The notes under the pieces: model-generated | Told to the model about the DNA's origin: nothing | Seen by the model: only the letters and a program-made list of their open reading frames with translations | The model's database searches: none | Program-made: the position numbers and the translations under genes | Origin: Escherichia coli | GTDB taxonomy: Bacteria; Pseudomonadota; Gammaproteobacteria; Enterobacterales; Enterobacteriaceae | DNA length: 11,380 bases | Reading direction: 5' to 3' (one strand) | Assembly (NCBI RefSeq): GCF_003334255.1 | Contig: NZ_QOWU01000083.1 | Shown: positions 2,277-11,380 of the stretch, in pieces | How positions within the stretch are numbered: the stretch's first letter is position 1 | How the letters are laid out: the number at the start of each line of letters is the position of its first letter

Positions 2277-2630
2277 TTAATTTATTAGCTTCATCGCATT
2301 TTTTTTGGTCTCTTCATCACTTTTTTGCTCTTGTTGTGAAGAGGATTGAGTGACTATTGAAGAATTAAAATCGGCCATCTCTTTTGGAAATAGCGATCTC
2401 AATATATTCACGATATCTGAAAATGTGGTTTCTTTCGTCAGCAGCTCACATAAAAGGAAAGGGGTCCGGGGATCTTGTCTGTATAAGGCCAGACCTGCCG
2501 TCAGTGCGGCCCGGTTAAGGCGGCTTCGTTCCCCTTGCGGGATACTGTCCAGTGTATCACAAACAATTTTATCTGTTTGATTTACATCTGGATTTAGTTT
2601 GAAGGCAATGGTTCTGCGCTTGTCCATCAT
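2277..2630 (-). CDS. parR: ParR (StbB) centromere-binding adaptor protein of type II (actin-like) partition system
   Basis: 117-aa translation [54 protein letters not shown]... matches my recollection of plasmid R1 ParR. Lies immediately downstream of parM with a TAATG stop/start overlap, the known parMR operon arrangement. Confidence 0.9.
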   Translation of the reverse strand: MMDKRRTIAFKLNPDVNQTDKIVCDTLDSIPQGERSRLNRAALTAGLALYRQDPRTPFLLCELLTKETTFSDIVNILRSLFPKEMADFNSSIVTQSSSQQEQKSDEETKKNAMKLIN

Positions 2631-3592
2631 TAATTACCTATGAGATACATACCGTTAACTAAATCATATTGAGAGTTATTGGTTTTGAAAAAACGTTCAT
2701 CACGAATCTGTGTGTGTTTTTTTACTGCATCGCATATTAATTCTGCGCCACCGCCTATAACCATAACATGAGTATAACCAGAAAATTCATTGAGCGTATT
2801 TAATACACGTTGCTCAAGTTTACGAAGTGCTTCATTCATTGCTTCGGTGACTATTGATATTTTGTTCTCATCATTAATTCGTTGCTTCAGATAGTTATTA
2901 TCTTTTCTGTGAATGATTATATCGTCAGCAAGATAGCTACTTCCTTTTGTTCTCGCAAGAGAAAGGGCATCTTTTACTGCAGATGTAACCAGAGAGACAC
3001 CAAGAGATGAGTCTCCGTATATTTTACTGATCCCCGATAATTTCCCCATTACCTGAGAAATATCTAATGTGGTGCCCCCGAGATCTATAATTAATAAAGA
3101 ATCTAACTCATCCAGTTCTTGTAGAACTTCATAACCTGCCGGTATAGATTCAGGCATGACTTTTACATCTTTTATTGTGAATGTATCCCCGCCATTTAAT
3201 GTAATTTTTTTCCGGAAGTTTGCTTTCTTACGCTCAATATTTTCCGTATTGGGTTGGTTATTTCTGTCGTAATACTCTGTCAGAGGAAGTGTGCAAACAA
3301 TATCCACTTCGCTTACCGGCAGACCACTGGTCAGTAAGGCGTGATGCACTGCAACGACATTAACGTCGCTGTATTGCCATGCGATATTGGTTGTGACTAC
3401 AGCATCCGGGCTGATTGGATCAAATGAATACTGTTCGCCGTTCAGTGTGTAGTTAAAGACCTTTTTATCACCAAAAGAGACTGCCCACTCGCGTTTGAAG
3501 CTGTTCGGGCTAATGTGCTGTTTAATTGTTCCGTCGCTTTCCTGCCACTGTAGTTTGATGTTTGTTGAACCGTCATCAATGAATACCAACAT
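2630..3592 (-). CDS. parM: ParM (StbA) actin-like plasmid segregation ATPase
   Basis: 320-aa translation [22 protein letters not shown]...[14 protein letters not shown]...[11 protein letters not shown]... carries actin-fold phosphate-binding motifs (DDGSTN, DLGGTT, GGGA) and matches R1 ParM as I recall it. RBS AAGGAG lies upstream of the ATG at 3590-3592. Confidence 0.95.
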
Positions 3593-3607
3593 TTATAAAA
3601 CTCCTTA

Positions 3608-3772
3608 TGGTGTTTTTTTGGTGTGTGTTTGGGTATGTTTTGGGTTTTAAGTGGGTTTGTTTGTCAAGTTTACCCCATTTCAACCATCAATCAATGATTA
3701 TTTGTCTTGTTTTGGTGTTTTATTGGGTTGGGTATGGGTTGTTTTTGGGTTTTGTTTGGCGGGTAACAAAAG
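3608..3772 (-). promoter_or_regulatory. parC: parC centromere/promoter region: two blocks of about five 11-bp iterons flanking the parMR promoter
   Basis: 11-bp periodic T/G-rich repeats on the + strand (for example ttgggtatgtt, ttgggttttaa, gtgggtttgtt, then after a ~45-bp spacer ttgttttggtg, ttttattgggt, tgggtatgggt, tgtttttgggt, tttgtttggcg). The spacer, read on the minus strand, contains TTGATT-16 bp-TAAACT and TTGACA. Architecture matches established R1 parC (10 iterons around the promoter). Confidence 0.7.
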
Positions 3773-4108
3773 ATGTCGCCGGGCTCCTCTTTTTACTGCG
3801 CCGGCTGACGCGGCGCGGCAGGAACGCTGCCTGTGGTCAGTGTCCCGCGTCCGGCCGGGCACGGGACGGGCGCTTTTACCGCTCCCGGCTGGCGTTGGTG
3901 ACAGTGTACGCCAGCCCGTCGCCCTTTTCTGATGAACGCCCTTCAAGCCGCTTTCGCGGCATATCCTCGCCGTCAAAAAGACGACGGCTGCGGTATTCCA
4001 CGGTCGGCCTGACCCGTTACCGGACGCGGTGAACAGCCCACAGGCAGCGGGGAACGGGCACCACAGGGGTGCCCTCCCGGTGCCCTCTGTAAGAGAAGGA
4101 GTGCTGTT
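3773..4108 (+). promoter_or_regulatory. Long GC-rich untranslated leader upstream of the methyltransferase operon; candidate structured promoter/ssi-like element
   Basis: About 335 bp with no credible ORF (only overlapping R/P/G-rich frames on both strands). Shares the 13-mer TGAACAGCCCACA (4030-4042) with 8399-8411. Ends with RBS AAGGAG before ATG 4109. Confidence 0.3.
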
Positions 4109-4792
4109 ATGTCCCGTTTTATCCTGGGTGACTGCGTGCGTGTTATGGCCACGTTTCCGGGCAATGCTGTCGATTTCATCCTCACCGACCCGCCGTATCT
4201 CGTCGGTTTCCGTGACCGTTCCGGGCGCACCATCGCCGGCGATAAAACCGATGAATGGCTGCAACCAGCCTGTAATGAAATGTACCGCGTACTCAAAAAA
4301 GACGCGTTAATGGTGAGCTTCTATGGCTGGAACCGCGTCGATCGCTTTATGGCCGCCTGGAAAAATGCGGGATTCAGCGTTGTTGGTCACCTGGTCTTCA
4401 CCAAAAACTACACATCGAAGGCCGCATATGTGGGCTATCGCCACGAATGTGCCTACATCCTGGCAAAAGGCCGTCCACGTCTGCCACAAAACCCGCTGCC
4501 GGACGTGCTGGGCTGGAAATATTCGGGCAATCGCCATCACCCGACGGAAAAGCCCGTTACCAGCCTGCAACCGCTGATTGAGAGCTTCACACACCCGAAC
4601 GCAATTGTGCTGGACCCGTTTGCAGGCAGCGGCTCAACCTGCGTCGCCGCCCTCCAGTCCGGACGCCGGTATATCGGTATCGAGCTGCTTGAGCAGTATC
4701 ACCGTGCCGGGCAGCAACGCCTTGCCGCCGTGCAACGGGCCATGCAGCAGGGGGCCGCGAATGATGACTGGTTTATGCCGGAGGCTGCGTAA
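4109..4792 (+). CDS. Orphan DNA methyltransferase, N6-adenine/N4-cytosine beta class (PF01555-like)
   Basis: 227 aa. Motif IV DPPY near the N-terminus (LTDPPYLVG) and motif I near the C-terminus (VLDPFAGSGSTCVAA), the order typical of beta-class amino-methyltransferases. Good RBS AAGGAG before the ATG. No adjacent restriction endonuclease candidate. Confidence 0.85.
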   Translation: MSRFILGDCVRVMATFPGNAVDFILTDPPYLVGFRDRSGRTIAGDKTDEWLQPACNEMYRVLKKDALMVSFYGWNRVDRFMAAWKNAGFSVVGHLVFTKNYTSKAAYVGYRHECAYILAKGRPRLPQNPLPDVLGWKYSGNRHHPTEKPVTSLQPLIESFTHPNAIVLDPFAGSGSTCVAALQSGRRYIGIELLEQYHRAGQQRLAAVQRAMQQGAANDDWFMPEAA

Positions 4793-5014
4793 ATGAACTA
4801 TGCAGGACACGAAAAACTGCGCGCCGAAGTGGCGGAGGTGGCCAATGCCATGTGCGACCTGCGTACAACCATGAATGAGATGGAGCAGCGGTACAGCTTT
4901 AATGCCGACACCCTGCCGGAACGTCTGGTGCGTCAGACGCTGTTTCGCGCAAACCGCCTCCTGATGGAGGCATATACCGAAATTCTGGAACTGGAAGCGT
5001 GCTTTAAAGATTGA
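4793..5014 (+). CDS. Hypothetical protein (73 aa), translationally coupled to the methyltransferase
   Basis: ATG immediately follows the methyltransferase TAA (TAAATG); GGAGG lies about 10 nt upstream; GC-rich codon usage consistent with neighbours. No recognisable family. Confidence 0.55.
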   Translation: MNYAGHEKLRAEVAEVANAMCDLRTTMNEMEQRYSFNADTLPERLVRQTLFRANRLLMEAYTEILELEACFKD

Positions 5015-5027
5015 GAAGGAGACGAGA

Positions 5028-5462
5028 ATGTACGGAACATGCGAAACGCTATGCCGGGAGCTGGCAGTAAAGTATCCGGGAGACATGCCGCTGATGCTGG
5101 TTATCTGGTCCCCGGAAGAGATTCAGGCACTGGCTGACGGTATGGAAATTTCTCTGACCGGTCATGAAATCAGGACCGTCCTGGCACGCCTGGAGGACAT
5201 CCCGGAAGACCAGCGGATTGAGTCCGGTATTTCTTCCGCTGCGGTGATGGAGATTATCCGCAACGAGAGCGAAAACCGCCTGGTGACCGTCCCTGCTGAA
5301 CTGCTGGCGTCCCTGATTCAGACCGCTGAACAGGCATTGTGGAAACGTGAATGGGCCGCCCGGGATCATGGCCTCGCCGTCCCGGAATGCGTCACCCGCC
5401 GTCAGGAGGTGGTTAATCAGGCCCGCACCCTGCTGAAAAACAACACACACGAAAACGACTGA
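5028..5462 (+). CDS. Conserved plasmid protein of unknown function (144 aa; possibly DUF1380-like), paralog of 7179-7601
   Basis: RBS GAAGGAGACGAGAATG. Aligns by eye with the 7179-7601 product (MY.T...RE...SLT..E..TV..RL.D...RxVTVPA..L). The DUF name is recalled, not verified. Confidence 0.6.
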
Positions 5463-6289
5463 TGTTATCGCCGCCTGCCCTGCGGGCGGCGATACAGGGA
5501 GAACGCTTAATCATGAACGAAAACAGCACGCTGAACGCACTGATTTGTCGTCACGCCCGCAACCTGCTGCTGGCGCAGGGCTGGCCGGAAGAGACGGATG
5601 TTGACCAGCGTAACCCGAAGTATCCGGGCTGGATCAGCATTTATGTTCTGCTGGATGCGCCCCGGCTGGCGACGTTACTTATCAACCGTCACGGCGGCGT
5701 ACTGCCGCCGCTCCTGGCCTCCGCCATTCAGAAACTGACCGGAACCGGGGCGGAACTGGTACTGTCCGGCAGTCAGTGGCAGTCGCTGCCGGTACTTCCG
5801 GCAGACGGAACGCAGGTGTCTTTCCCGTATGCCGGAGAATGGCTGACCGAAGACGAAATCAGGGCTGTACTTGCGGCGGTGCGCGATGCGGTACGCAGTG
5901 TCAGTTGCCGGGTGGCAGAAGATGCGCGGCGTATCCGGGCGGCGCTGACCACCACCGGTCAGACGTTGCTGACTCGCCAGACGCGCCGCTTTCGTCTGGT
6001 TGTGAAGGAAAGCGATCACCCCTGCTGGCTCGATGAAGATGACGAAAACCTGCCCGTGGTGCTCGATGCCATCGTGAACCGGGGAGCACGTTTTTCGTCG
6101 GTGGAAATGTACCTGGTCAGCGATTGTATTGAGCATATCCTGTCCAGTGGGCTGGCCTGCGATGTGCTGCGTATACCGGATGAACCGCCCCGCCGCTGGT
6201 TTGACCGTGGTGTTCTGCGGGAGGTGGTCCGGGAAGCCCGGGCCGAAATCCGCAGCATGGCGGATGCCCTGGCAAAAATCCGGAAATGA
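5462..6289 (+). CDS. Hypothetical protein (275 aa; alternative start ATG 5513 giving 258 aa)
   Basis: ATG 5462 overlaps the upstream stop (TGATG). An internal ATG at 5513 has its own RBS (AGGGAGA). Long GC-rich ORF co-oriented with neighbours. No recognisable motif. Confidence 0.6.
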
Positions 6290-6706
6290 TGACGTTGGCG
6301 GGGTAAATCCCCGCCTTTTTCCTGCCGGTCCCCGGACAGAGCACAAAGGAAGTCGCCGCCGGCTCCGCTTTACCCGGCCATGCAGGGCATGGCCTTGTGG
6401 TTTTTCAGTTATGTGGCCTCAGCGTCGTGTGCGGGCTGTGCCGTGCCTCCATCTTAGCCGGGCTGGCAGGGATGCAAGGGTACGCTTCGCCGCTGCGGTC
6501 ACCCGGTCCCTCCTTCCCGTCTGCCGTGATTTTCCGGTCGTTCACCCGCTCAGATTTCGCGGTCTCACCCTCCAACTCCCGCCAGCCGTGTGCGTCAGGC
6601 TGCGGCTTCCCTTGCGCCCTGTGCATCCCCGCCTTATCGCCCGGCTTTTATGGAGGCACGGCACCGCCCGGTGTCGCGGAATATGTGAACAACGGAGGAA
6701 AACATC
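6290..6706 (+). promoter_or_regulatory. GC-rich about 415-bp untranslated region upstream of klcA; candidate structured promoter/ssi-like element
   Basis: No credible ORF (the 6129-6734 and 6397-6741 frames are R/C/W/P-rich and overlap). Ends with TGAACAACGGAGGAAAACATCATG (RBS GGAGGA before klcA ATG 6707). Confidence 0.3.
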
Positions 6707-7132
6707 ATGCAATATGCGAAACCTGTCACTCTGAACGTTGAAGAGTGCGACCGTCTCTCCTTTCTACCGTATCTGTTTGGCAACGATTTTCTGTATGCCG
6801 AGGCGTATGTGTACGCGCTGGCGCAAAAAATGATGCCGGAATATCAGGGAGGCTTCTGGCACTTCATCCGCCTGCCGGACGGTGGCGGTTACATGATGCC
6901 GGATGGCGACCGTTTCCACATGGTGAACGGTGCAAACTGGTTTGACCGTACCGTGAGTGCTGATGCCGCAGGCATCATTCTGACTTCCCTTGTGATTAAC
7001 CGCCAGTTGTGGCTGTACCACGACAGCGGGGATGCAGGACTGACCCAGCTTTACCGGATGCGCGATGCGCAGTTGTGGCGTCACATCGAATTTCACCCCG
7101 AATGCAACGCGATTTACGCGGCACTGGACTGA
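6707..7132 (+). CDS. klcA: KlcA/ArdB-family antirestriction protein
   Basis: 141 aa; ...[68 protein letters not shown]... matches my recollection of KlcA/ArdB (Antirestrict family) proteins on IncF/IncP/IncN plasmids. RBS GGAGGA 7 nt upstream. Confidence 0.85.
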
Positions 7133-7141
7133 TTAACGGAC

Positions 7142-7160
7142 GGGGCGGCAATGCCGCCCC
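7142..7160. other. Intercistronic GC hairpin (GGGGCGGC-AAT-GCCGCCCC) directly upstream of an RBS
   Basis: Perfect 8-bp GC stem with 3-nt loop, 10 nt after the klcA stop and immediately before AAAGGAGACGAGAACATG. No downstream T-run, so not a canonical intrinsic terminator. Confidence 0.5.
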
Positions 7161-7178
7161 TGTAAAGGAGACGAGAAC

Positions 7179-7601
7179 ATGTACTGTACTGTTAAAGAAA
7201 TTATCCGCGAAGTGCTGAACACAGACGTGCCGGACAGTGAATGCGTTTTTGCCGTGGTGCTGACCCGTGGGGATGTGCGTCACATAGCCCAGGACTGGAG
7301 TCTGACAGACGATGAGCTGGAAACCGTCATGCAGCGACTGGACGATGCCTTTGCGCATGGTGCGGATGTCAGCATTGTTCACGACGTTGTTCGTGAGCTG
7401 ATGGAAGAAAAGCGCGCCAGCCGTCAGGTGACAGTTCCGGCGGTGATGCTGGAAAAAGTGATGGCGCTGGCAGGCAGTGAAATGAAGCGCCTGTATGCCG
7501 TCGGGAGCGAGAACGGGGGCGACGGTGACGCATTCGTCAGGGAAGAACGCGAAGCAATGGACGTTGTGTTACAGGCGCTGGACGGGGAGCACATGTCATG
7601 A
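7179..7601 (+). CDS. Conserved plasmid protein of unknown function (140 aa; possibly DUF1380-like), paralog of 5028-5462
   Basis: RBS AAAGGAGACGAGAACATG nearly identical to that of 5028. Sequence similarity to the 5028 product along the whole length, including the shared VTVPA motif. Confidence 0.6.
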   Translation: MYCTVKEIIREVLNTDVPDSECVFAVVLTRGDVRHIAQDWSLTDDELETVMQRLDDAFAHGADVSIVHDVVRELMEEKRASRQVTVPAVMLEKVMALAGSEMKRLYAVGSENGGDGDAFVREEREAMDVVLQALDGEHMS

Positions 7602-7789
7602 ATATCAGCACAGAAACCCGCGAAATTCTGCGCAATTACAAAGCCGTGATTAATGCGCGGCGTCGTGAAATGGGGCAGAAACCGCTCACCACTGCGCAGA
7701 TTGTTGATGAAATCTGCGATTTTGTGGCGAATCAGCAGGCTGTATTCCTCGGCGGTCACTACATCCTTCAGGGCAGCATAAACAGGTGA
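7598..7789 (+). CDS. Hypothetical small protein (63 aa), translationally coupled (ATGA overlap)
   Basis: ATG 7598 overlaps the TGA of the upstream gene; co-oriented; no recognisable family. Confidence 0.45.
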   Translation: MNISTETREILRNYKAVINARRREMGQKPLTTAQIVDEICDFVANQQAVFLGGHYILQGSINR

Positions 7790-7957
7790 TACAGGGGCAG
7801 GCGGTGGAGGCCGCCTGTCAGCCCGCGCGAAAACCCCTGGCAGGCTGACGCCTGCCGGAAGGGAAGCGGGCCACGCTGGCGCGTCGCCCGTTACCCTTCC
7901 CGTCTGTGATGTGTCTGACTCAGGAGTGTTTCTTTCTTATGTTATGGAACTGTTCCT

Positions 7958-8058
7958 GATGTTGTTGTTCCTTTATCTACTGCTCTGATTCTGACTACTG
8001 CAGTGTTGTTCTGTCTGCCGGGCGCACCTTCGGCTCCCGGCTGCCTGGCGGCATCCGG
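7958..8058. repeat. Copy 1 of a repeated leading-region element (77-bp core with 1 mismatch to copy 2)
   Basis: Core 7982-8058 (GCTCTGATTCTGACTACTGCAGTGTTGTTCTGTCTGCCGGGCGCACCTTCGGCTCCCGGCTGCCTGGCGGCATCCGG) matches 11304-11380 with a single T/C difference. The upstream GATGTTGTTGTTCC (7958-7971) is also shared with 11247-11260. Confidence 0.6.
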
Positions 8059-8409
8059 TCGTCAGGCCCGACTCCGACAGGCAGCTGCTGGCGCACCTGC
8101 CAGTCTCCGCCGAACCCGCTGGCGCGGTTTCGGGCTGCCGCTACGGTCCGATGCGTGAAAACCCCTGGCTTGCAGCGACCGTTCCGGTCGCGCCGCCTCT
8201 GTCGCGCCGTGGCCTGCGCTCCCGGCATCCCGGCAAAAGGCCGCCGGGATGTAAGGGGCAACGCCGTTTCGCGCACGCGCTCTCCGTCGTTGCGGCGGGC
8301 CCCTGCTCATTGCCTGCCGGGTGCCACACACCCGTATGAGTCCCTGTCGCCGGGGGCTGATACAGCCACAACCTGCCGCACTGACTGTCCAGGGTAAATG
8401 AACAGCCCA

Positions 8410-8445
8410 CAAAATTTTTTACCCAAAACCCGGTAAAAAATTTTG
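8410..8445. repeat. Perfect 14-bp inverted repeat (CAAAATTTTTTACC / GGTAAAAAATTTTG) with 8-nt loop
   Basis: 8410-8423 and 8432-8445 are exact reverse complements; an AT-rich stem embedded in GC-rich DNA, immediately after the shared 13-mer TGAACAGCCCACA. Confidence 0.5.
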
Positions 8446-8729
8446 CGTTCTGCCCAGGACAGGTGCGTCAGGCCGTGGCAGTGATGCCCCTTGCGGCGAA
8501 GGTTCTCAAACGGGTGAAGTTCATACCACAGTGAATACAGCAGCAGGTTCCCGCGAAACGTCAAAACCGCGGCTCCCGAAACTCAACGGGTGATGTTCTT
8601 TAAAAATCAGGATTTATTTCAGGCTCCGGCAATACGCATTTATTTGTTCTGTCAGTCATCCGGCTGACAGGTAATGAGAACGCAGGAACAGAAGGAGGAA
8701 AACACCGGAAAGCGTCAGATGCAGATATG

Positions 8730-8753
8730 AAAAAAGCAGGTCAGGCACCTGCT
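8730..8753 (-). terminator. Terminator-like hairpin oriented for the minus strand (stem AGCAGGT/ACCTGCT, followed by T6 on the minus strand)
   Basis: On the + strand: AAAAAA-AGCAGGT-CAGGC-ACCTGCT. On the minus strand this is a 7-bp stem followed by TTTTTT. Located about 75 bp upstream of ATG 8827. Confidence 0.35.
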
Positions 8754-8826
8754 TAATCCACGCCGTAAGAATTGTGCGACCAATTTTGACGGCATTGTTA
8801 ACCAATTTGTCATAAGGAATCCATTT

Positions 8827-9057
8827 ATGACTGTAAGCATTGTTTCACCTTCCGCAGCGGCTGTAAAGCCCCGCCGTCATCCCCGTTTCAGACGCGAAGA
8901 CATCCCCACGCCGGAAATTGACCCCGTGTTGAAAGCCTTCGGGCGACACATAGCCCGGAGTTTTCACCGGGGGCGTGGTGTACACATCCCCGCCATGAAA
9001 AACACGGCTTTCGGGCAGGTGCTCCGCACACTCGAACTGAAACGCGCTTTTAACTGA
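8827..9057 (+). CDS. Hypothetical small basic protein (76 aa)
   Basis: ATG with AAGGA upstream; R/K/H-rich product; co-oriented and followed after 51 bp by the 453-aa gene. No recognisable family. Confidence 0.45.
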   Translation: MTVSIVSPSAAAVKPRRHPRFRREDIPTPEIDPVLKAFGRHIARSFHRGRGVHIPAMKNTAFGQVLRTLELKRAFN

Positions 9058-11246: not shown

Positions 11247-11380
11247 GATGTTGTTGTTCCTGCTACTGCTACTGCTACTGCTACTGCTCTTCTTTTTCCT
11301 GCCGCTCTGATTCTGACTACTGCAGTGTTGTCCTGTCTGCCGGGCGCACCTTCGGCTCCCGGCTGCCTGGCGGCATCCGG
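11247..11380. repeat. Copy 2 of the repeated leading-region element, truncated by the window end; contains a (TGCTAC)4-5 microsatellite insertion relative to copy 1
   Basis: 11304-11380 matches 7982-8058 (76/77). Between the shared GATGTTGTTGTTCC and the core there are tandem hexamers TGCTAC x4 plus TGCTC (11261-11289) that are absent from copy 1. Confidence 0.6.

Follow-up and report, generated by a model that had tools for sequence, protein, structure and literature searches.

Two GC-rich untranslated leaders in an 11,380-nucleotide stretch of an Escherichia coli contig (NZ_QOWU01000083.1, assembly GCF_003334255.1; hereafter the window) carry the same 13-mer, TGAACAGCCCACA. Is this a single regulatory site used twice? 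A first-pass annotation of the sequence had proposed so, naming a transcription start region, an operator or a processing site as candidates. The window comes from a conjugative plasmid of IncF (R100/F) type, whose leading region it represents, and the 13-mer occurs in it at exactly two sites, 4030-4042 and 8399-8411, both on the plus strand. The first copy ends 66 nt ahead of the ATG of a DNA methyltransferase gene at position 4109. The second abuts an AT-rich inverted repeat, as had been noticed (8403-8423 / 8432-8452; in the DNA fold, 8408-8423 and 8432-8447 pair as a 16-bp apical stem). We conclude, with a probability of about 0.85, that the two 13-mers are non-equivalent parts of two known, unrelated hairpin promoters and that their exact identity is a lineage-specific coincidence.

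Promoter classes of the leaders and recurrence of the 13-mer

The GC-rich leaders of the window are published single-stranded-DNA (ssDNA) promoters: leader A, upstream of the methyltransferase gene, belongs to class 3, leader B to class 2, and leaders C and D to class 1. Both leaders that hold the 13-mer are regulatory DNA, as had been supposed. In promoters of the Frpo/ssi type, the transferred strand folds into a hairpin that resembles a duplex sigma-70 promoter and gives early, transient expression of leading genes (PMC9849209, PMC11541004). In F, Frpo1 and Frpo2 are both required for downstream expression (PMC9849209), and an A+T-rich UP element of Frpo was annotated by Samuel et al. (PMC11541004). 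Six promoters of this kind were mapped in pESBL by RNA-seq and 5' RACE (rapid amplification of cDNA ends) and sorted into three classes by Wen et al. (Nucleic Acids Research 2025, PMC12672017). The ssi/Frpo elements make up class 1; klcA and ardA are preceded by class 2 promoters and the gene for M.EcoGIX by the class 3 promoter. According to the same paper, F has conserved counterparts of classes 2 and 3, the mapped starts agree with those that the authors had predicted, the class 3 elements of pESBL and F are active only when single-stranded, with early transient expression in transconjugants, and no homology exists between the classes. A 2026 preprint names the elements ssp1a/b, ssp2 and ssp3 (bioRxiv 10.64898/2026.01.09.698686). 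The three classes in IncF/IncI leading regions and their mapped start sites were thus already known.

The genes on the plus strand of the window point toward oriT and the transferred strand enters 5' end first, so the transferred strand must be the minus strand of the window and the template, in agreement with Samuel et al. (PMC11541004) and Couturier et al. (PMC9849209), who place the template for the leading genes on the transferred strand. While single, this strand would fold each leader into a long hairpin mimicking a duplex sigma-70 promoter; host RNA polymerase would then transcribe the downstream anti-defence and establishment genes from the folded leaders, until synthesis of the complementary strand flattened the hairpins and ended early transcription. 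We scanned the plus strand from 3600 to 8900, which covers three operons, and found no duplex sigma-70 promoter of conventional type, which is consistent with expression depending on single-stranded hairpin promoters. With promoters of this kind, a plasmid can express its anti-restriction, methylase, SSB and anti-SOS genes while the strand that has entered is still to be copied.

The evidence that the 13-mer recurs beyond chance is weak, and the recurrence is statistically unremarkable. In dinucleotide-preserving shuffles of the window, exact direct repeats of at least 13 nt number 1.0 +/- 1.0, and 66% of the shuffles hold one or more. Five more isolated exact repeats of such length were found between positions 1 and 11240, for example AAGGAGACGAGAA at 5016 and 7165. 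A Smith-Waterman comparison of leader A with leader C (7800-8640) returned the 13-mer alone as the best alignment, with a score of 26 against a null of 22.6 +/- 2.8 that was reached by 36 of 300 shuffles (p ~0.12); on this comparison a hidden homology of the two leaders was rejected. The 13-mer pattern with up to three mismatches occurs at six sites, against 3.3 expected. By eye, and with no tool test run, the 13-mer fits neither LexA, IHF nor oriT-nic sites, and no Rfam family was found at either copy.

Isolated exact repeats of at least 13 nt between 1 and 11240 number six in all, against about one expected. The repeat AAGGAGACGAGAA (5016-5028 and 7165-7177) lies upstream of both DUF1380 genes and resembles a paralogous ribosome-binding site (RBS) region; other pairs start at 7487/9201, 6196/6937, 6315/11292, 7829/8157 and 1423/9637.

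Placement of the two copies within the class 3 and class 1 hairpins

The class 3 promoter (ssp3) was recognized by its fold, homology and covariation as a branched hairpin of the minus, transferred strand at 3783..4055. Leader A lies upstream of a methylase gene of the M.EcoGIX family, has the transferred strand as template, is homologous to known elements and forms a large, stable stem-loop (-97.4 kcal/mol under DNA folding, z = -5.9). It is 100% identical to R100 and shares 96% identity with the sequence ahead of the DNA methylase gene in R64, R64 being used in place of pESBL as the IncI1 proxy for the class 3 comparison; the 70 nt around the 13-mer show two differences from the class 3 element of F. 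As a plasmid-wide search returned at least 5000 near-identical records, class 3 diversity was taken from bacterial genome loci, and the resulting alignment comprises 14 sequences: the window, three close relatives and ten homologs at 75-81% identity from a scan of bacterial genomes. In the consensus fold of the transferred strand, 98.2% of cells are paired, compared with 37-47% when the partners are slid, and 14 pairs show changes on both sides, a number that none of 500 shuffles reached. The basal helices have pairing probabilities of about 1.0 under DNA parameters.

Copy 1 (4030..4042, plus strand) lies in the gene-proximal, right arm of this hairpin, inside inverted repeat I2 (3825-3854 / 4020-4049), and reads TGTGGGCTGTTCA on the transferred strand, where it belongs to the 5', template arm and fills alignment columns 72-84. 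Its two halves are constrained in different ways. Columns 72-76, the complement of CCACA at 4038-4042, are in the basal helix and include three compensatory pairs (72/284, 74/282 and 75/281). In the class 3 homologs at 75-81% identity, CGTACAGGCTCCG replaces TGAACAGCCCACA and the far arm changes from CTGTGGT to CCGGAGC, so that six of the 13 bases are replaced; because the partner arm changes in a compensatory manner, the 3' half of copy 1 is under a pairing constraint and not a sequence constraint. Columns 77-84, the complement of TGAACAGC at 4030-4037, form a partly mismatched conserved loop that faces ACACTG on the 3' arm. This hexamer is invariant in 13 of the 14 homologs, with AGACTG in the remaining one (locus L019), and the central T.T mismatch of the loop is present in all 14.

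The class 2 3' arm, with its TAAGAT hexamer, reads away from the apex toward the gene, and by analogy we took the 3' arm of ssp3 as the non-template arm. A candidate -10 box would then be GACACT (3839..3844, minus strand; CACACT in the diverged homologs), opposite the 5' half of copy 1. The T at -7 of this candidate falls within the T.T mismatch in all 14 sequences, and in the diverged group a C stands opposite the A at -11; that this A is always unpaired had to be discarded, since the window lineage can pair it with T4032, beside a bulged C. A putative -35-like hexamer, CTGACC (TTGACC in seven of the 14 homologs), is located at 4009..4014 on the plus strand, as the complement of the ssp3 template arm, and would be separated from the candidate -10 by 15 or 17 nt depending on the register. 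A composite -35 (TTGA + CC) built across the three-way junction appears in the RNAalifold consensus, but DNA parameters give its helices probabilities of at most 0.3 and covariation is absent from them, and we downgraded it to a possibility. The predicted structure suggests that the -10 region of ssp3 could be a pre-opened ACACTG mismatch loop, and by analogy the +1 may be close to 4042; a second register, in which CACTGR follows YTGACC after a spacer of 17 nt, would shift it to about 4044. In either register, copy 1 would be the RNA-sense copy of about -12 to +1 of ssp3. The proposal that the 13-mer marks a transcription start region is thus probably correct for copy 1, although not as a site common to both copies. 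What we offer for the class 3 -10 is a conserved ACACTG / CTGT(T/A)C mismatch loop with an invariant T.T mismatch. A small hairpin, GGGCACC/GGTGCCC (4056..4074, plus strand), stands between the predicted start and the methylase RBS; all its cells are paired (100%), and four of its seven pairs are changed on both sides (at 42/56, GC in seven and AU in seven sequences). It could be a 5' stem-loop of the mRNA or a part of the DNA structure.

Copy 2 lies in a different hairpin. The class 1 (Frpo/ssi-type) element of leader C, defined by DNA fold and alignment, spans 8273..8573 of the minus strand with a core stem at 8329-8516. Its fold, like those of leaders A and B, is far more stable than that of shuffled sequence. 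The published sequences of F ssiD (Frpo1) and ColIb-P9 ssi1-3 (Masai & Arai 1997; Nasim et al. 2004; PMC9849209; PMC11541004) can be aligned with leader C over its length; the apical 76 nt of leader C (8381-8456) match F Frpo2 exactly, as a longer core does the R100 copy that precedes ssb. Its homology to F Frpo and ColIb-P9 ssi, and its occurrence as a dispersed repeat before leading-region operons, place it in class 1. The window holds two class 1 copies, at 7949-8573 and from about 11240 onward. The left end of the latter (leader D, 11271..11380, plus strand) is an 88% direct repeat of 7949-8058 and is cut by the end of the window; in R100 this second element is complete, precedes ssb and contains the 13-mer a third time. 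At the upstream ends of these repeats (11255-11290 and 7949-7990) there are a tandem (CTGCTA)n run and the T/G-rich TGATGTTGTTGTTCCT, and their length differs between copies.

On the transferred strand, copy 2 (8399..8411, plus strand, left arm) is in the 3' arm, just below an AT-rich apical stem-loop at 8408..8447 that resembles an UP element; this is the repeat initially described as a 14-bp AT-rich inverted repeat, and its 16-bp stem closes an 8-nt loop. When the minus strand from 8270 to 8580 is folded as DNA, copy 2 occupies transferred-strand indices 170-182: TGTG closes the 16-bp apical stem, GG is unpaired, CTG is paired with CAG, and TTCA opens an 8-nt bulge. Below it, CCCTGGACAG paired with CTGTCCTGGG forms the most conserved duplex block of the class 1 family. 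A TGGACA box (8386..8391, minus strand), paired with 8456-8461 on the opposite arm and matching TTGACA at five of six positions, is a candidate -35. Almost all of 25 aligned class 1 sequences, from every subtype, keep CCCTGGAC (CACTGGAC in locus L021).

The apex above this block is hypervariable. Three architectures were found among the 25 sequences (L003-L024, F, R64 and R100, compared over window positions 8395-8452): AT-rich as in the window, longer, and short GC-capped. In the longer apex, which has about 35 additional nucleotides, other sequence replaces the 13-mer segment, and the short GC-capped apex lacks both this segment and the AT-rich segment, the presumed UP element; the TGGAC box and the lower stem are conserved in spite of this variation. 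Even within the AT-rich type the 13-mer segment varies, being TGCGGGATGTGCA in F ssiD and TGTGGCTGGTACA, TGTGGACGGTATA and TGTGGCCGGTGCA in ColIb ssi1-3.

Two registers may be considered for the class 1 promoter. Reading away from the apex, it would have TGGACA as its -35 and a +1 near 8491, and copy 2 would separate this -35 from the UP-like apex upstream. Reading toward the apex, it would start near 8371 and include copy 2 in its transcript, at roughly +29 to +41. Neither register gives copy 2 the place that copy 1 has in ssp3. Other assignments for class 1 were considered and set aside. The bulge TTCATTTA as -10, or TTGTGG as -35, gave inconsistent spacings, and subtype iii lacks everything above the bulge. 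A 5'-arm promoter toward the apex, TTGAGA-N17-CATACT in F ssiD, has CATCAC for CATACT in the window and no counterpart in ColIb ssi1-3, and was kept as an alternative only. The TTGAGA-N17-CATACT arrangement of F ssiD (window 8480-8510, minus strand) is in itself a good sigma-70 match and, as a duplex, would be antisense to the leading genes. A further resemblance was noticed between the bubbles of the two hairpins: CTG stands opposite CTG with a central T.T mismatch in class 3 (3839-3844 / 4030-4037) and in class 1 (8364 / 8480), and by eye also in F ssiD and ColIb ssi3.

Concerning the third, related site that had been reported before the klcA RBS, TGAACAACGG is found where it was described (6686..6695, plus strand). 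It matches the 13-mer at only eight of 13 positions, and it lies in an unconserved linker between the ssp2 hairpin and the RBS, outside the hairpin, so that it does not qualify as a related motif. Its equivalents are TGAATAACGG in F, TGACTATGG before R64 ardA and TAAAACCGG in a class 2-like element of an insect metagenome, and it would lie about 28 nt downstream of the predicted ssp2 start. The ssp2 hairpin itself (inverted repeat I1, 6432..6670, minus strand, fold z = -5.7), upstream of klcA/ardB, carries on its non-template arm TAAGAT (the reverse complement of 6451-6456) opposite TTTTAT (6646-6651), with a 3-base mismatch.

Distribution among plasmids and alternative explanations

A common regulatory site would be expected to recur at both positions in related plasmids, and the two sites were found to assort independently. 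R100 has the 13-mer at the class 3 site and in both of its class 1 copies, and F has it at the class 3 site and in Frpo2, while Frpo1 lacks it. In R64 it is found at the class 3 site alone, none of the three class 1 copies having it, and locus L003 shows the same state, present in class 3 and absent in class 1. The converse is seen in L004 and L013, where the 13-mer is present in class 1 and absent from class 3 (in L013 the homologous segment is CGTACAGGCTCCG). The ColIb-P9 ssi elements, which have been described as functional, also lack it. Since Frpo1 is needed in F without having the 13-mer, and since starts have been mapped for the pESBL class 1 elements, which are of the R64 type, the exact 13-mer is not needed for class 1 function.

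The proposal of one common operator, start or processing site is thus not supported, for several reasons. The promoter classes that hold the two copies have no significant similarity beyond the 13-mer. The copies are on opposite arms of their hairpins, copy 1 in the 5' template arm and copy 2 in the 3' arm above the TGGACA box, at unequal distances from the promoter-like boxes. They are not co-conserved (R64, L004, L013 and F Frpo1). In class 3 the constraint is on pairing and not on sequence, and in class 1 the segment belongs to a hypervariable apex and is deleted or replaced in two of the three subtypes. Some observations do weigh against our reading of the 13-mer as a coincidence between non-equivalent parts of two promoters. 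The 13-mer is present at both sites together in F and R100, and L013 keeps it in a class 1 element that is only 82% identical overall. When the comparison was restricted post hoc to the three leaders, only 3% of the shuffles (61 of 2000) had some 13-mer in common, which makes the match mildly unusual under that restriction. Both copies are at a transition from stem to loop, with a loosely similar pairing pattern. Besides, the -35, -10 and +1 assignments for ssp3 are drawn only from the sequence and its predicted structure, the junction that would build the ssp3 -35 has a low predicted probability under DNA parameters (helices at 0.3 or less), and two promoter registers are possible for class 1.

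Some of these observations would favour a shared sequence-specific site that coordinated the methylase and Frpo leaders, either as an operator of a plasmid or host regulator or as the place where RNA polymerase, SSB or a helicase touched the transferred strand in its folded state: an exact match in two regulatory leaders (three in R100), present at both sites in F and R100, kept in L013 and seldom reproduced by the leader-restricted shuffles. Nevertheless, we consider such a site very unlikely, because of the opposite arms and unlike positions of the copies, their separate occurrence in R64, L004 and L013, the lack of the 13-mer in F Frpo1 and the ColIb ssi elements in spite of the requirement for both F Frpo elements and the mapped pESBL class 1 starts, the exchange of six of 13 bases with compensation in the diverged class 3 homologs, and the loss or replacement of the segment in two of the three class 1 subtypes. 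An equally small chance may be given to a reading in which TGTGGGCTGTTCA at stem-loop junctions would be a small structured ssDNA element read by one factor, or else the mark of an exchange between promoter classes; RNA polymerase sigma-70, SSB, UvrD or a leading-region protein could be that factor, and it would tune class 3 and IncF-type class 1 promoters together. If it were true, a shared factor-binding role would offer a handle on the coordinated control of early plasmid gene expression.

Slightly less improbable, but still very unlikely, is that the 13-mer is a historical trace, left by common ancestry of the class 1 and class 3 hairpins or by a short gene-conversion or recombination patch in an IncF/IncI ancestor. 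Both elements are long GC-rich hairpins of the same region, and a second likeness, 25 nt at 80% identity between 3867-3891 and both 8019-8043 and 11341-11365, is collinear with the 13-mer. However, the spacing between the two likenesses is unequal (163 nt versus 380 nt), the flanks of the 13-mer are unrelated on both sides, the alignment of the leaders is no better than that of shuffles, with the 13-mer alone as its best result, and ordinary compensatory evolution of the stem explains the class 3 13-mer; Wen et al. (PMC12672017) likewise describe no homology between classes. An RNA-level signal common to both leader transcripts, such as an RNase processing site or a small-RNA target, would agree with the sense orientation of both copies upstream of coding regions, and copy 2 would indeed be transcribed if the class 1 promoter read toward the apex. 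Yet copy 1 would not be in the mRNA, because the predicted ssp3 start is at or just after its last base, the motif is not conserved at either site beyond close relatives, and Rfam gave no match at either one; we regard this last explanation as scarcely credible. The 13-mer is therefore best taken as a by-product of two unrelated hairpins. In itself it matters little, and the useful outcome is the assignment of the GC-rich untranslated regions to promoter classes.

Gene context and comparison with known systems

Between 3600 and 8900 the window is matched at 90% identity or more by over 5000 plasmid records, mostly conjugative plasmids of Escherichia, Klebsiella, Salmonella and Shigella. The R100, F and R64 annotations share the gene order ParM (minus strand), DNA methylase, DUF1380, antirestriction protein (KlcA/ArdB), DUF1380, DUF3560, a second methyltransferase and SSB, with oriT and the tra genes further to the right; the window agrees with them in gene order and in how its genes are oriented with respect to oriT/tra. 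The M.EcoGIX-type methyltransferase gene of the window (4109..4792, plus strand; NCBIfam NF010253, 498.7 bits) is annotated as DNA methylase in the three plasmids, and the window and R64 methylases are 94% identical. Near-identical enterobacterial leading regions were also found in assemblies labelled as Gram-positive, namely L010 and L022 (Streptomyces morookaense) and L001, L002, L028 and L039 (Collinsella and Oscillospiraceae metagenome-assembled genomes); contamination or mis-binning is the likely origin of these labels.

Several features outside the promoters were observed in passing. Just upstream of parM (2630-3592, minus strand), G/T-rich repeats with 11-bp spacing form two clusters 83 bp apart at 3605-3753, a layout that resembles a parC-type centromere and promoter. 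Between the open reading frame (ORF) at 1819-2154 and a parR-like ORF at 2277-2630, the 19-bp arms of a perfect inverted repeat flank a loop of 9 nt (2220-2266); this is probably a bidirectional terminator. At 8731-8832 on the minus strand there is a match to the Rfam family AS-pc01 (RF02875, "antisense to pHK01_035"; 73.1 bits, slightly below the family's gathering score of 79, E = 1.4e-11). The same strand carries a TG-extended promoter-like site, TTTACA-17-AACAAT, from 8867 to 8839 and a terminator-like hairpin from 8754 to 8734, which together with the match would yield an antisense RNA over the start of the 76-amino-acid ORF at 8827.

The comparison with published promoters leaves few differences. 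Leader A has the same position and the same methylase family as the published ssp3 of pESBL/IncI1 and F, and we found no substantive difference, so they are the same element; the -35, -10 and +1 positions proposed for leader A are our own inference. Leader B is near-identical to the hairpins upstream of klcA in F and R64 and to the one upstream of ardA in R64, has the TAAGAT -10-like hexamer of class 2 and does not contain the 13-mer; the class 2 element of F doubles as a replication roadblock resolved by UvrD. Leader C and the known Frpo/ssi elements are all long imperfect hairpins with an AT-rich apex that precede leading-region genes. Leader C differs in that it stands before the 76-amino-acid ORF and the DUF3560 gene, and not before ssb or ygeA, with about 180 extra bases ahead of the ATG. 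At the joint of the apex it shares the 13-mer state of F Frpo2, R100, L004 and L013, and not that of ssiD or ColIb ssi1-3. Conventional plasmid operators, such as those of KorA/KorB in IncP plasmids, likewise are short exact repeats upstream of several operons. Unlike operators of this type, the 13-mer shows neither positional equivalence nor co-conservation nor palindromic symmetry, and it recurs at a frequency that chance would produce.

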